DNA of 64,000 nt. Origin: Tissierellales bacterium (GTDB taxonomy: Bacteria; Bacillota; Clostridia; Tissierellales; Sedimentibacteraceae). Location: assembly GCA_018433765.1 (NCBI GenBank), contig JAHDQO010000006.1, positions 247,034 to 311,033 on the forward strand. Reading direction: 5' to 3'. The stretch's first letter is position 1; each line of letters starts with the position of its first letter. A program made the translations under genes and the position numbers. Under the pieces are notes generated by a model. It worked only from the letters and a program-made list of their open reading frames with translations. It had not been told where the DNA came from and did no database searches. This document shows, one piece after another, positions 20,385 through 22,712 of the stretch.

Positions 20385-20591
20385 CTATTCCTTAATAATT
20401 TCTGCTGCTAATATATTTTCTTTTTTAAATATACGCTGTCCTTTTCTCAGATAGCAGTATGCTTCTACTTTATCTTTTTTTATTTTATTAACTTTTATTA
20501 TCCGTTCTGTCAACTTGCTTCCTTTTTGATATATTATTTTTATTTTTTTATTCTCTAGCAATGATATTTTCAAGTAATGTTCAATCATCAT
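20385..20591 (-). CDS. Hypothetical small basic protein (68 aa)
   Basis: ORF 26 nt upstream of tsaD; no recognisable family. Confidence 0.35.
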
Positions 20592-20696: not shown

Positions 20697-21419
20697 TTAT
20701 TTCAAAAAAATATTATCTAATTCAACTTCTAACCCCTTAAATATAAAAGACTTAGCTTTTTCATTTAACTTAGATGTTGAATTATTTATAATGTCTTTTT
20801 CTTCAAATTGAAAAATTGACACTTCTTGATTTAAAGGATTTATTATCCAGTATTCTTCTATCCCGCAACACATATATATATCTAGTTTTTTTATATAATC
20901 TTTATTCCTCGTAGATTCAGATATTATTTCAACTACTAGAGAAGGTGCACCCATATAATATCCTCTTTTATCTATTTTTTCCTTTAAATCACTAATTATC
21001 ATAACATCTGGCTGTACTATATTAATATTTTCTTCATCTCTTTTTAACGTAATATCACATGGTGATGTTAACGGTATATAATCTTTATCATCAAAAAACT
21101 TAAAGAAATTTTGTAACAATTTAGTTACTGCATATTGATGTACTATTTTCGGTGGTGATAACAAATATATCTCGCCATCTATATATTCATATCGTTCTTC
21201 TGAATTCTCAATTAGTTTTATGAATTCATCATACGATATTTTATTATCAACATTAGAACATTCTTTTATTTCAGCATTTTGTTTGTTTATATCTTTGTTT
21301 GCATTGTCTATAAGCTTAGCAATTATTTTTGCATTTTTAGTAATTACTATATCTTGCTTGCTGCATAATCTCAGGTATTTTCCAAAATTATTCTGTATTT
21401 CAGTAGAGCTTACCTTCAT
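20697..21419 (-). CDS. Fusion protein: N-terminal Phd/YefM-like antitoxin domain plus C-terminal Uma2-family (DUF820, PD-(D/E)xK) putative endonuclease
   Basis: N-terminus MKVSSTEIQNNFGKYLRLCSKQDIVITKNAKIIAKLI matches the Phd/YefM pattern. From about aa 60 onward (ERYEYIDGEIYLLSPP..H...D...E.K) the sequence is Uma2-like. Confidence 0.55.
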   Translation of the reverse strand: MKVSSTEIQNNFGKYLRLCSKQDIVITKNAKIIAKLIDNANKDINKQNAEIKECSNVDNKISYDEFIKLIENSEERYEYIDGEIYLLSPPKIVHQYAVTKLLQNFFKFFDDKDYIPLTSPCDITLKRDEENINIVQPDVMIISDLKEKIDKRGYYMGAPSLVVEIISESTRNKDYIKKLDIYMCCGIEEYWIINPLNQEVSIFQFEEKDIINNSTSKLNEKAKSFIFKGLEVELDNIFLK

Positions 21420-21436
21420 GTCACCACAACTCCCTT

Positions 21437-21577
21437 TTATGATTTATTAGTTAAAAGTTTTGTAAAGAAGTTAATTATCTTTGAAAATTTAAAGATTTCT
21501 GAACCTATATATCTTGCTAATCTAAAAACAATTATTCCAACTATAATAAATAATAAAAAACTTATTGTAATTTTCAT
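21437..21577 (-). CDS. Possible 46-aa hydrophobic membrane peptide (absent from the ORF track)
   Basis: ATG preceded by GGGGTGA. Sequence MKITISFLLFIIVGIIVFRLARYIGSEIFKFSKIINFFTKLLTNKS. Lies directly upstream of the Phd-Uma2 gene. Confidence 0.25.
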   Translation of the reverse strand: MKITISFLLFIIVGIIVFRLARYIGSEIFKFSKIINFFTKLLTNKS

Positions 21578-21814
21578 ATAATATTCACCCCATAATTATC
21601 TATAAAAATTATTTTTTTGTAGTTTATTTTTACTATTATCTCATCATTCTATATTTTAGCTATTTTAGCTATTTTAGTCAAGAAACTGGAATAAAAAAAT
21701 TGAATAAATATGTGAAAATTATAAAATAACCAATGGTTAATGGAACATGTACTCGAATACCATCATATTATATACTAATATATCAAATATAATTTTAAGG
21801 AGGAAAAAAAATCA

Positions 21815-22351
21815 ATGTCAAATATTATTATAAATCCTGGTACAGATGTTAATCAATGGACATTAACTGGCGCTCCTGTTGATTATGCAATACTTGGAGC
21901 TGTTGAAGTAAAAGAAGAAAAAAACTTTATCTCAACAACATCTGCTCCAATTAGTTTTTCTGCACCTCCAGGTGAAACAATAACAGCTATATTAAATTGT
22001 ACAGCAACAATATGGCCTGGTTCTATTCAAATTGTAGATATTAGTGGAACTTTTTATGTTGAATTCAATACCACTATTTCTATCACTGTTCAATATGCTA
22101 GCGGTTTAGTTGCTTTACTGCAGCAAACTTTGGTTGCTCAAGGATTATTAGGTCCAGTTGGAACTGTAATTCCTTCAACTTCACCAATTACACCTCCTAC
22201 TGTTACTTGTGTAGGAGCAGCAATTACTGGCGGAGGAACAGGAGTACAAGGATCAATTCAAATAGGAGCATTCTTTGTTGATGTATTAGAACTTAAGAGT
22301 GTTAAAGTAGCTCTTGACCCAACTAGTCCTATAGGCCCACCATTAATTTAG
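21815..22351 (+). CDS. Hypothetical T/S/G/P/I-rich protein (178 aa)
   Basis: Strong RBS AAGGAGGAAAAAAAATCA + ATG and its own terminator at 22358-22405. Compositionally biased, with no signal peptide. Confidence 0.5.
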   Translation: MSNIIINPGTDVNQWTLTGAPVDYAILGAVEVKEEKNFISTTSAPISFSAPPGETITAILNCTATIWPGSIQIVDISGTFYVEFNTTISITVQYASGLVALLQQTLVAQGLLGPVGTVIPSTSPITPPTVTCVGAAITGGGTGVQGSIQIGAFFVDVLELKSVKVALDPTSPIGPPLI

Positions 22352-22433: not shown

Positions 22434-22712
22434 ATGATAAAATTATTTAAGACAATTATAAAAAAAATTTATTTAGCTGCTAAAATAATTTTCACTCAAA
22501 ACATCATAGAAACTAAGAATATCCAAGGGAATAATATTATACTTATGATACCAAGAAAAGCTGATAAACCTAATTTTATAAAATTAATATTAGATGAAAG
22601 AAAATTATTGCATGCTTCTCAATATTATATTAGAAAACCTGAGAAAAAACCTGAACCGAAAAAGTTAATAATAAAGCCTCTCAATAATGCACATCAAAAT
22701 AATCTGAGATAG
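22434..22712 (+). CDS. Hypothetical basic low-complexity protein (92 aa)
   Basis: ORF with a weak RBS; the bidirectional terminator lies at its 3' end. Confidence 0.3.
   Translation: MIKLFKTIIKKIYLAAKIIFTQNIIETKNIQGNNIILMIPRKADKPNFIKLILDERKLLHASQYYIRKPEKKPEPKKLIIKPLNNAHQNNLR

Follow-up and report, generated by a model that had tools for sequence, protein, structure and literature searches.

We found that a gene in the 64-kb stretch of DNA analysed here (the window) encodes a real fusion of a Phd/YefM-type antitoxin module to a Uma2 nuclease domain. Our preferred interpretation, to which we give a probability of about 0.6, is that this gene is a self-contained, transcriptionally autorepressed Uma2 nuclease built on the operator-binding half of a Phd/YefM-type (VapB-like) antitoxin. 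Autoregulation is supported by a conserved putative TTAGCTAA operator in our comparative data, and it is probably through this repeat that the fusion family represses its own gene. The Phd–Uma2 fusion is a large, widespread and already annotated family of which the window gene is one ordinary member, and it is distributed across Bacillota as a solo gene, with no partner gene conserved beside it.

A Uma2 nuclease domain preceded by a Phd/YefM-type module

The fusion protein is encoded by one uninterrupted ORF that is found in two independent assemblies. A protein in public assemblies (P0001) is 100% identical to it, and its full-length homologues share 50–71% identity. We assigned the following features to the gene:

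20697..21419, minus strand: fusion gene, 240 aa plus stop, with a Phd/YefM-type N-terminal module, a linker and a Uma2 nuclease domain (ORF list)
21306..21419, minus strand: truncated Phd/YefM core, aa 1–38 (family alignment, AF2, PF02604, hhalign)
21249..21305, minus strand: linker, aa 39–57 (pLDDT and gapped alignment columns)
20700..21248, minus strand: Uma2 (PD-(D/E)xK superfamily) domain, aa 58–240 (PF05685, PADLOC PDC-S03, Foldseek, profile alignment)
21430..21436, minus strand: Shine-Dalgarno AAGGGAG, 10 nt upstream of the fusion ATG (read from the sequence)

Uma2, also known as DUF820 or COG4636, is a very large PD-(D/E)xK family for which several crystal structures are available. The Uma2 domain that a sequence-only reading of this DNA had placed after the N-terminal part was recovered by PF05685 over aa 64–215 (106 bits against a cutoff of 27; E = 2e-30), a profile matched by 40 of 40 relatives, and by the PADLOC PDC-S03 model PDLC04832 over aa 58–238 (E = 1.2e-51), which covers the Uma2 part only. 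A Foldseek search with the AlphaFold2 (AF2) model returned 6OKH (E = 2e-15; TM 0.85 on the target) as well as 9Y1L, 1WDJ and 3OT2, and the pLDDT of the model was 81–97 per 10-residue block over most of the domain, with one block at 74. Across the family, residues E78, D81, E83, D122, Q136-P137-D138, S167, K178 and E189-Y190-W191 do not vary and E164 is conserved to at least 90%. When profiles were aligned to 9Y1L and 6OKH, the motifs yE.idGE, PD, vEilSe, K..lY and EYWiv.P were preserved. As aligned, the set of Uma2 signature residues is intact, and we infer from the sequence that these residues have catalytic roles.

In fold and in signature residues, aa 58–240 resemble the stand-alone Uma2 proteins (the four structures above and PDC-S03), which, unlike the fusion, are without an N-terminal DNA-binding module. 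Stand-alone and fused forms alike are uncharacterised and tend to be solo genes or paralogues; in the view of Makarova et al. (PMC2701414), Uma2 is probably a solo toxin. Our search of the literature found no functional study of Uma2, no mention of a Phd–Uma2 fusion and no paper describing the ~245-aa Phd–Uma2 family.

It could be argued that there is no real fusion and that the first 40 residues simply lengthen a Uma2 variant or come from a merged gene call. The window protein's own Phd/YefM scores, which fall below curated cutoffs, lend some support to this argument: PF02604 gives 20.2 bits against a cutoff of 29.8 (E = 5e-4; aa 2–37 on profile positions 3–40 of 74), and TIGR01552 gives 19.2 bits against 20.8. 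We nevertheless consider such an explanation extremely improbable and rejected it, given that the ORF is single in both assemblies, that PF02604 is matched at E ≤ 0.01 by 40 of 40 aligned family members (best E = 3e-10), and that the N-terminal family profile aligns to genuine 71-aa Phd/YefM antitoxins with an hhalign probability of 99.8% (E = 9e-29; 59% identity). Residue ~58 is where stand-alone Uma2 relatives and the PDC-S03 model start, and the TTAGCTAA operator described below goes with the N-terminal module, not with Uma2. The protein is thus longer than a stand-alone Uma2 because it is a true domain fusion. The sequence-only reading, which had quoted the N-terminal sequence correctly and likened it to Phd/YefM antitoxins, is upheld by this Pfam assignment, in which Phd/YefM similarity is present at the family level.

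The N-terminal module is related to the DNA-binding half of PIN-toxin antitoxins

In the AF2 model, residues 2–36 form a strand (2–4), a helix (5–18) and two further strands (24–28 and 31–36). Within the module, S5, T6, N10, N11, G13, K14, L16, I26, N29, A34 and L36 are invariant in the family; position 30 is A in the window protein and G in at least 90% of the family. Mean column identity is 78% in the module, compared with 68% over the whole protein. PF02604 profile positions 41–74, which follow strand 3 in canonical Phd/YefM proteins, are unmatched by the module. Because these regions are missing, dimerisation of the module is assumed, and aa 1–38 would then be a dimeric operator-binding domain. 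A PDB sequence search with the 40-aa profile alone gave weak, non-significant matches only, the best solved match being M. tuberculosis VapB5 (3DBO; E = 0.16), with 3G5O at E = 1.3.

Beyond this core, residues 41–58 have a pLDDT below 50 in the AF2 model and are predicted to be disordered, and the linker columns of the family alignment are gapped and non-conserved, with variable length and sequence. The linker occupies the place of the toxin-binding tail of canonical antitoxins: the C-terminal toxin-binding region of Phd/YefM is absent from the fusion, and the linker and Uma2 stand there instead. Judged by its sequence, the fusion retains only the operator-binding half of an antitoxin, and for this reason the term "single-chain toxin–antitoxin", which the sequence-only reading had suggested, describes a possibility only.

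A profile search of 1.84 billion representatives returned, besides fusions, proteins of ~71 aa in which the same 39 residues are followed by a conserved tail ("..SLVGIIP.D.D..ERLARQ") where the fusion has its linker. Five of six tested stand-alone antitoxins pass the PF02604 cutoff, and in ~60 of 79 loci the antitoxin stop overlaps (ATGA) a 135–146-aa PIN_3 gene. No separate Uma2 gene was found beside the stand-alone antitoxins, there being just three fusions among 80 metagenome loci. The closest stand-alone antitoxin operons have the same TTAGCTAA box flanking the −35 and the −10. By sequence comparison, aa 1–38 are closely homologous to the N-terminal half of genuine 71-aa PIN-toxin antitoxins. 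These Phd/YefM-type antitoxins of PIN (VapC) toxins (71–77 aa; for example, L083 and L126) share with the fusion 59% identity over the N-terminal 39 residues, the predicted strand–helix–strand–strand core and a TTAGCTAA box at the promoter, whereas the fusion is without their conserved tail and without an adjacent PIN gene, and carries the linker and Uma2 instead. The spacing of the boxes also differs, with a 9-bp tandem in the fusions and ~24–27 bp, flanking the −10, in the PIN-antitoxin operons.

A conserved putative operator overlaps the promoter

Upstream of the fusion gene, a promoter scan and the motif itself point to the following elements:

21653..21681, minus strand: promoter-like TTGACT-17-TAAAAT with the putative operator inside (promoter scan, conservation in a syntenic relative, L002)
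21657–21662 and 21666–21671, minus strand: exact TAGCTA boxes, 9 bp apart (sequence motif)
21675–21680, minus strand: degenerate third box, in register (sequence motif)

One of the two exact boxes overlaps the −10 and the other lies within the spacer. The box variant in the window is ATAGCTAAA, the consensus being TTAGCTAAT, and the exact TAGCTA tandem is the only one in the 64-kb window. In the syntenic relative, this promoter–operator segment is kept, whereas the rest of the leader up to the fusion gene is not.

The same motif recurs across the family. Of 39 other fusion genes, 35 have TAGCTA in their upstream region, whereas shuffled sequences reached 18 at most; the remaining four loci are without an exact box. 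Its density is 7.6 per kb upstream of fusions compared with 0.15 per kb elsewhere in the same loci, and that of the 9-bp tandem is 3.2 per kb compared with 0. In contrast, none of 34 stand-alone Uma2 genes, which are without the N-terminal module, has a TAGCTA box upstream. Module and TTAGCTAA boxes strictly occur together, in the fusions as in the canonical TA operons. Fusion genes carry 2–3 boxes, with 23 of 39 consecutive box pairs 9 bp apart, and across fusion loci the median distance from the end of the last box to the ATG is ~25 nt. For the window gene, the assignment of the promoter is less secure because the operator ends 237 nt, not ~25 nt, upstream of the ATG; the promoter scan also found weaker promoter-like sites closer to the gene. 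Against Rfam, the 237-nt leader gave no match to a known RNA at E ≤ 1.

At the level of sequence, then, a palindromic putative operator lies at the gene's own promoter, as in autoregulated Phd/YefM systems. In E. coli, YefM represses through paired TGTACA hexamers that overlap the −10 and lie no more than 80 bp from the start codon (PMC1802561). The TAGCTA boxes of the fusion are likewise paired hexamer palindromes that overlap the −10, lie near the start codon and are conserved across genomes, and the proteins belong to the same antitoxin family. The two systems differ in the centre-to-centre spacing of the hexamers, which is 12 bp for YefM–YoeB and 9 bp for the fusion, and in the nature of the second component: YoeB is a separate co-repressor, whereas the "toxin-like" domain of the fusion is covalently attached. 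The operator of the fusion is a predicted one.

In the model that we favour, the N-terminal module would dimerise and bind the tandem TTAGCTAA boxes over the −10 and the spacer of its own promoter, and this binding would keep expression of the fusion low, in parallel to YefM on its paired TGTACA. The Uma2 domain, predicted to be an active metal-dependent nuclease that may be harmful at high dose, would be tethered covalently to the repressor, in place of an antitoxin tail and a non-covalently bound toxin. Boxes phased at 9 bp could nucleate a higher-order repressor complex, since self-association is conceivable for Uma2 domains as well as for Phd cores.

The TTAGCTAA motif could equally be a nuclease target instead of an operator. 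One proposal of this kind is that the N-terminal module is a targeting domain that steers the Uma2 nuclease to DNA bearing TTAGCTAA arrays, whether promoters of related VapBC-type modules or invading elements. The higher column identity of the module relative to the whole protein is consistent with this proposal, as is the occurrence of the box in distant genomes and in PIN-type toxin–antitoxin (TA) operons, as a result of which one protein could recognise sites beyond its own promoter. We nonetheless think it quite unlikely. In ~300 kb of flanking DNA together with the 64-kb window, the tandem was found only at the fusion gene's own promoter, which it would be self-destructive to cut, and overlap with the −10, just 5′ of the RBS, is classical repressor geometry (PMC1802561).

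The fusion is a widespread solo gene

Both Pfam domains are present in 112 of the best 120 homologue clusters, ~40 species genomes carry the fusion, and hundreds of ~245-aa proteins in Bacillota have the same architecture, annotated either as "Phd/YefM antitoxin" or as "Uma2 endonuclease". The sequence-only reading, which took Uma2 proteins to be normally stand-alone, had called for the architecture to be sought in other genomes; the architecture was found in many of them, and the fusion is not a rarity.

No partner gene accompanies the fusion consistently. All-against-all clustering of the ORFs within 2.5 kb of 40 fusion genes yielded nothing recurrent but antisense shadows, and these loci do not show the canonical type II TA layout of two adjacent co-transcribed genes, the fusion being a single gene with no recurring neighbour. 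When an HMM of the N-terminal module was used to look for a separate Phd-like gene beside stand-alone Uma2, it found only fusions, frameshifted fusions and one second paralogue, although this profile is narrow and divergent antitoxins would therefore be missed. At the window locus, no intrinsic terminator was found between the fusion gene and the downstream ORF, whose 68-aa product had no significant match in the PDB. A test for a foreign island was uninformative because the GC content of the fusion gene (0.24–0.26) is only slightly below that of its neighbours (0.25–0.34).

By Pfam and AF2, an antitoxin-derived domain and a putative effector share one chain, and a different view of the protein is that it is a true single-chain TA or an abortive-infection sensor similar to CapRel(SJ46) or EzeT, which we regard as a minority possibility. 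The N-terminal module or the linker would occlude or restrain the Uma2 active site in cis, and a trigger such as a phage protein, proteolysis of the disordered linker by Lon or Clp, or detachment from DNA would release the nuclease, with death or arrest of the cell as the outcome. There is established precedent for fused TAs whose antitoxin domain acts in cis; known fused TAs include CapRel(SJ46), EzeT and the class 11 fused HicAB proteins, which have an RHH or HTH DNA-binding domain (PMC9712102; PMC10865869). Like the fusion, these proteins combine a TA-derived regulatory domain and a potentially toxic enzymatic domain in one monocistronic chain, and class 11 HicAB also has its DNA-binding domain within that chain. 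The match of the Uma2 part to a candidate-defence model (PDC-S03) and the solo-toxin view of Makarova et al. (PMC2701414) are in line with such a role, and the linker, as modelled, would be open to proteases. Several representatives of the family are in-frame deletions or frameshifts in which the nuclease core is lost and the N-terminus kept, as would be expected if the nuclease were costly. A cis-restrained nuclease would be compatible with autoregulation, not exclusive of it.

However, CapRel(SJ46), EzeT and class 11 HicAB have a recognisable toxin-neutralising antitoxin domain, whereas the fusion keeps the DNA-binding half only: the toxin-neutralising C-terminal tail is exactly the part that is missing, and the linker that replaces it is conserved in neither length nor sequence. 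Its effector, unlike theirs, is a putative PD-(D/E)xK nuclease whose toxicity is predicted only. Genomic context argues in the same direction. The window locus is flanked by the housekeeping genes tsaD, mutS2 and ABC-F and is not in a defence island, with contexts differing between fusion loci. The fusion is absent from the phage collection, which gave one Uma2-only match, and from the plasmid collection, in which none of the matches listed starts before query residue 24 and none therefore shows an intact N-terminal module. PDC-S03 is itself a candidate only, and we found no paper on it.

A short hydrophobic ORF upstream of the fusion gene

The leader of the window gene contains two further features:

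21437..21577, minus strand: 46-aa ORF (MKITISFLLFIIVGIIVFRLARYIGSEIFKFSKIINFFTKLLTNKS), in the 237-nt leader between the operator and the fusion gene (ORF list)
21586–21591, minus strand: SD-like GGGGTG, 8 nt before the ATG of the 46-aa ORF (read from the sequence)

The sequence-only reading had drawn attention to a short hydrophobic ORF with an RBS immediately upstream of the fusion. Such an ORF does exist on the same strand, preceded by the SD-like GGGGTG, with a hydrophobic N-terminal stretch and with its stop codon lying 17 nt short of the fusion ATG; as part of a conserved module it did not hold up. These signals, together with a hydrophobic helix at the N-terminus, are in line with a two-gene operon in which a 46-aa membrane peptide (type-I-toxin-like or holin-like) would act with the fusion protein, and the ORF lies downstream of the operator–promoter and would therefore be co-transcribed. 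When the intergenic region was shuffled with its dinucleotides preserved, 2.8% of the shuffles gave a same-strand ATG ORF of this length (p about 0.03), which places the ORF only marginally beyond chance on that strand.

Comparative evidence makes a two-gene operon very unlikely. In a tblastn search the peptide was found only in an identical contig (L001) and was absent from the syntenic relative L002, despite flanking genes in the latter that are 71–85% identical to those of the window. There was no recurrent upstream small ORF in 39 other fusion loci and no homologue among 5.8 billion proteins, and neither the protein collection nor the public assemblies of this organism list the ORF among their genes. 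Codons for F, I and L come naturally to a T-rich strand such as this one, and of the 41 ATG ORFs of 46–89 aa in the window, many overlap with longer ORFs and seem spurious. With no homologue, no recurrence and no Rfam RNA in the region, the ORF does not have the marks of a type I toxin or of a small membrane peptide. It is probably an unconserved orphan, not a functional partner, and may have arisen by accident in this one lineage, the leader of this organism being unusually long and quick to evolve.

Implications for Uma2 and for TA diversification

Uma2 has previously been guessed to be a "solo toxin" and has been listed as a phage-defence candidate. Our analysis provides no new biochemical principle. 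What is new is the link between the N-terminal module of the fusions and the DNA-binding half of antitoxins encoded with PIN (VapC) toxins, together with the palindrome TTAGCTAA that both groups have at their promoters.

A more far-reaching model, which is speculative and in our judgement unlikely, is that Phd–Uma2 is a widespread single-gene immune or addiction module in which the repressor half keeps the nuclease on the gene's own TTAGCTAA operator array as an inactive oligomer and the nuclease, when released, becomes a DNA-degrading abortive-infection effector. Release could be triggered by proteolysis of the linker, by titration by phage or plasmid DNA that bears the box, or by cross-talk with VapBC-type modules that share the operator. 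If true, this model would give the large Uma2 family its first function and would represent a new wiring of a TA-derived DNA-binding domain to an effector.

In summary, under the interpretation that we prefer, in which the gene is an autorepressed solo nuclease, the fusion family offers a concrete handle on Uma2 in the form of an antitoxin-derived DNA-binding module and a conserved putative operator (TTAGCTAA in a 9-bp tandem). The wiring of Uma2 to such a module with a defined operator implies that the nuclease needs tight autorepression. The family would also exemplify a route of TA diversification, in which the operator-binding half of a VapB-like antitoxin and its operator are re-used with a different, covalently attached effector.

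Results

A widespread two-domain family

The analysis concerns four features on the minus strand:

20697..21419, minus strand: fusion ORF of 240 aa (ORF list)
10 nt 5' of the fusion ATG, minus strand: Shine-Dalgarno AAGGGAG (read from the sequence)
21437..21577, minus strand: 46-aa ORF; GGGGTG stands 8 nt 5' of its ATG, and 17 nt separate its stop from the fusion ATG
21681..21653, minus strand: predicted promoter TTGACT-17-TAAAAT (promoter scan)

Both ORFs named in the sequence-only reading are present on this strand, and the N-terminal peptide quoted there is correct. In Pfam, residues 64–215 of the fusion protein match Uma2 (PF05685; E=2e-30). Residues 2–37 match positions 3–40 of the 74-position PhdYeFM_antitox profile (PF02604) with E=5e-4 and 20.2 bits, under the 29.8-bit gathering score, and the NCBIfam phd_fam score is also slightly sub-threshold. 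From the window protein by itself, the Phd assignment would be only suggestive.

The exact protein is found in public assemblies, and 995 matches were obtained among 5.8 billion proteins. The best 120 of these are all 239–268 aa long, cover the entire query and share 50–71% identity with it. Relatives carry database names such as 'type II toxin-antitoxin system Phd/YefM family antitoxin', 'prevent-host-death family protein' and 'Uma2 family endonuclease'. A scan of species-representative genomes placed full-length fusions mostly in Bacillota, including Syntrophomonas, Paenibacillus, Bacillus, Ruminiclostridium and Dehalobacter, and also returned many stand-alone Uma2 relatives whose alignment begins near query residue ~58. 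The fusion itself is thus confirmed, but the premise that its architecture is unusual was mistaken as to rarity: the scan found about 40 loci, and 112 of the best 120 matches have precomputed assignments to both PF05685 and PF02604. The window gene is a typical representative of this family, which is widespread and annotated in databases yet unstudied. We found no description of the Phd/YefM-Uma2 architecture in the literature and no functional study of Uma2 in the literature that mentions it; Steczkiewicz et al. (PMC3424549) list Uma2 as a 'predicted endonuclease'.

An AlphaFold2 model built from a 40-sequence alignment (mean pLDDT 82, pTM 0.77) predicts an N-terminal fold of strand 2–4, helix 5–18, strand 24–28 and strand 31–36, a disordered stretch at residues 41–58 (pLDDT <50) and, C-terminal to it, a confidently modelled alpha/beta domain. 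This domain resembles the solved, uncharacterised Uma2 structures 6OKH, 9Y1L, 1WDJ and 3OT2. The signature motifs yE.idGE, PD, vEilSe, K..lY and EYWiv.P are kept in the profile alignment to 9Y1L and 6OKH; E78, D81, E83, D122, Q136-P137-D138, S167 and K178 are invariant in the family, and E164 is conserved in at least 90% of it. Because these motifs and residues are preserved, the nuclease site looks intact, and the catalytic roles of the residues would follow the pattern of the PD-(D/E)xK superfamily. The Uma2 part also matches the PADLOC phage-defence candidate PDC-S03 (E=1e-51), of which we found no mention in the literature.

The N-terminal module is homologous to VapB-like antitoxins

A profile of the 40 N-terminal residues of the family, searched against 1.84 billion cluster representatives, gave 1059 matches at E<=1e-3 and 227 at E<=1e-10. 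These comprise full fusions, many fragments and a class of genuine ~71-aa proteins, in which the same 39 residues are followed by a conserved tail, '..SLVGIIP.D.D..ERLARQ'. Five of six tested ~71-aa proteins pass the Pfam PhdYeFM gathering score (31–40 bits). We fetched 80 metagenome loci encoding them and analysed 79; in about 60 of the 79, the antitoxin stop overlaps by ATGA a 135–146-aa gene whose product starts 'MKxLxDTNxxxD' and matches PIN_3 (Pfam, E=4e-25). By sequence, these pairs are canonical Phd-type VapB/VapC modules. In a profile-profile comparison the fusion N-termini match the ~71-aa antitoxins with 99.8% probability (E=9e-29, 59% identity over 39 columns), so the fusion carries the N-terminal half of an antitoxin of this kind. 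That there is no real fusion is hardly credible given this match and the fact that 40 of 40 aligned members individually match PF02604 (best E=3e-10).

The N-terminal half of Phd/YefM proteins is their dimeric DNA-binding part. Data on this part are available for YefM (PMC1802561). The fusion lacks the C-terminal toxin-binding tail, in place of which stand a linker, variable in length and sequence across the family, and the Uma2 domain. This bears on the main competing explanation, a true fused toxin-antitoxin or abortive-infection sensor of the CapRel(SJ46) or EzeT type (PMC9712102; PMC10865869), which would be compatible with autorepression. The disordered linker of the model fits it, as do copies that have suffered a frameshift or an internal deletion yet retain the N-terminus. 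On the other side, the fusion is missing precisely the portion of the antitoxin that neutralises the toxin, and the linker is unconserved; we consider this explanation rather unlikely.

In several cluster representatives (P0121, P0124, P0140, P0144, P0218, P0255 and P0268) an in-frame internal deletion has removed the nuclease core but spared the DNA-binding module and the extreme C-terminus; three genomic copies (L025, L044 and L045) are frameshifted. Selection against an active nuclease may explain such copies, or they may be artefacts of assembly. Separately, the N-terminus (INATEIRNNFSYYIDTVVR) of PDB 3K6Q, a 139-aa 'putative ligand binding protein', resembles the start of the module, which hints that the same segment may be fused to yet other domains.

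A conserved putative operator tracks the module

When the intergenic region was aligned with that of the syntenic locus L002, a single conserved block remained on the fusion-gene side, TTGACTAAAATAGCTAAAATAGCTAAAATA, with which the predicted promoter coincides; the remainder of the leader is unalignable. When k-mers were counted in the 200 nt preceding each of 39 other fusion genes, the box TAGCTA occurred in 35 (shuffle maximum 18) and its longer palindromic form, TTAGCTAA, in 25 (shuffle maximum 7). Within 250 nt upstream of the fusion genes there are 7.6 boxes per kb, versus 0.15 per kb in the rest of the same loci. Most fusion loci have 2–3 boxes, with exact 9-bp spacing in 23 of 39 consecutive pairs; their flanks complete the palindrome (T/A)TAGCTA(A/T), and the last box lies a median of ~25 nt from the ATG, immediately 5' of the RBS. 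The closest stand-alone antitoxin operons have the same box, usually in two copies flanking the -35 and -10 (for example L126, TTTAGCTAAAATAACATATAATATTTTTAGCTAAAAGGAGG), whereas all of 34 stand-alone Uma2 genes lack it upstream. The distribution of the box therefore follows the N-terminal module rather than the Uma2 domain. Operator specificity has diverged within the antitoxin subfamily, since one subgroup (L101–L124; PIN-associated, partner toxin starting MRILIDTNVILD, from human-gut metagenomes) has no TAGCTA upstream.

The boxes are positioned where repressors sit. YefM binds paired TGTACA hexamers over its own -10, an arrangement conserved across genomes (PMC1802561), and the fusion-gene boxes follow the same logic. 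From these comparisons we infer that the module is a functional operator-binding autorepressor. The tandem TAGCTAN3TAGCTA, with one mismatch allowed, has a density of 3.2 per kb upstream and is not seen at all elsewhere in the same loci, and 21657–21671 is the sole exact tandem within the 64-kb window. Because the tandem is confined to the gene's own promoter, we regard a targeting role of the module as improbable.

The long leader and the 46-aa ORF

From operator end to fusion ATG the leader measures 237 nt in the window and 166 nt in L002, versus 11–49 nt in 32 of 35 other fusion loci; it matches no Rfam family. The 46-aa ORF, read earlier as an upstream membrane peptide, lies within this leader. 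Its product is missing from the protein collection, so it is uncalled as a gene. It could be translated, since a Shine-Dalgarno sequence is present and co-transcription is expected. A functional operon of peptide and fusion is nonetheless very improbable: the ORF has no counterpart in L002, despite flanking genes 71–85% identical, and no homologue among 5.8 billion proteins, and no small upstream ORF recurs in any fusion locus. ATG ORFs of at least 46 codons arise in 2.8% of dinucleotide shuffles on that strand (6% on either), the window holds 41 ATG ORFs of 46–89 aa, many of them overlapping longer ORFs and apparently spurious, and the peptide's hydrophobicity is what a T-rich strand would encode. 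The ORF is no conserved component of the system.

Inside its 3' end (21440..21470, minus strand) is a one-mismatch box, TTAACTAA, ending 27 nt before the fusion ATG and so matching the usual last-box position. An ancestral proximal operator that has since degenerated could explain it, as could coincidence in AT-rich sequence.

Genomic context

The closest relative, P0002 (71% identity), lies at L002, which shares with the window the order divergent 178-aa gene, fusion, 68–70-aa ORF, tsaD and ABC-F gene. No neighbour ORF recurs over 40 fusion loci, so the fusion gene stands alone, and the genes around it vary and often have housekeeping roles. The local GC content does not stand out. The phage collection and the plasmid matches listed contain no fusion; Uma2 domains alone match in both. 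Some genomes have two copies, in tandem or nearby: a tandem copy in L003 (5189..5941, plus strand), a second copy in L036 (7697..8443, minus strand), and L014 and L030, two contigs of one MAG. Because paralogues have the operator box in common, cross-regulation among them, and with VapBC-type modules bearing TTAGCTAA, is possible.

The 68-aa ORF (20385..20591, minus strand) lies 105 nt 3' of the fusion stop, and no terminator is predicted in the gap. Its similarity to the WYL domain is weak (Pfam E=0.028; PADLOC RTasWYL-YodC E=1.3e-6), and it may be a minimal WYL-only protein. It is uncalled in this genome, 85% identical in L002, where it is called as a 70-aa gene, and absent from the other 38 fusion loci. 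On the divergent side, a 178-aa protein rich in G, P, T, S and I (21815..22351, plus strand; 82% identical in L002) is followed by a 92-aa basic protein (22434..22712, plus strand); neither has a match in Pfam or PADLOC. Within the shared intergenic region, conservation is highest in the promoter-proximal part of the 178-aa gene, and because the TTAGCTAA operator lies 134 nt 5' of its ATG, co-regulation is conceivable.

Discussion

The architecture, the homology to antitoxins, the co-occurrence and position of the operator and the preserved signature residues are best explained, with a probability of roughly 60%, if the fusion is a solo Uma2 nuclease that represses its own gene. The Phd-type module would, as a dimer, bind the phased TTAGCTAA boxes at its own promoter, so that little is made of a PD-(D/E)xK nuclease that is probably harmful. 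In evolution, the operator-binding half of a VapB-like antitoxin would have been re-used together with its operator, a covalently tethered effector being substituted for the toxin-binding tail and separate toxin. The interpretation given in the sequence-only reading is supported in part. The family itself is already annotated in databases; what is new is the antitoxin ancestry of its module and the conserved TTAGCTAA operator, which together suggest that the fusion is a toxin-antitoxin-derived, autoregulated single-chain module.
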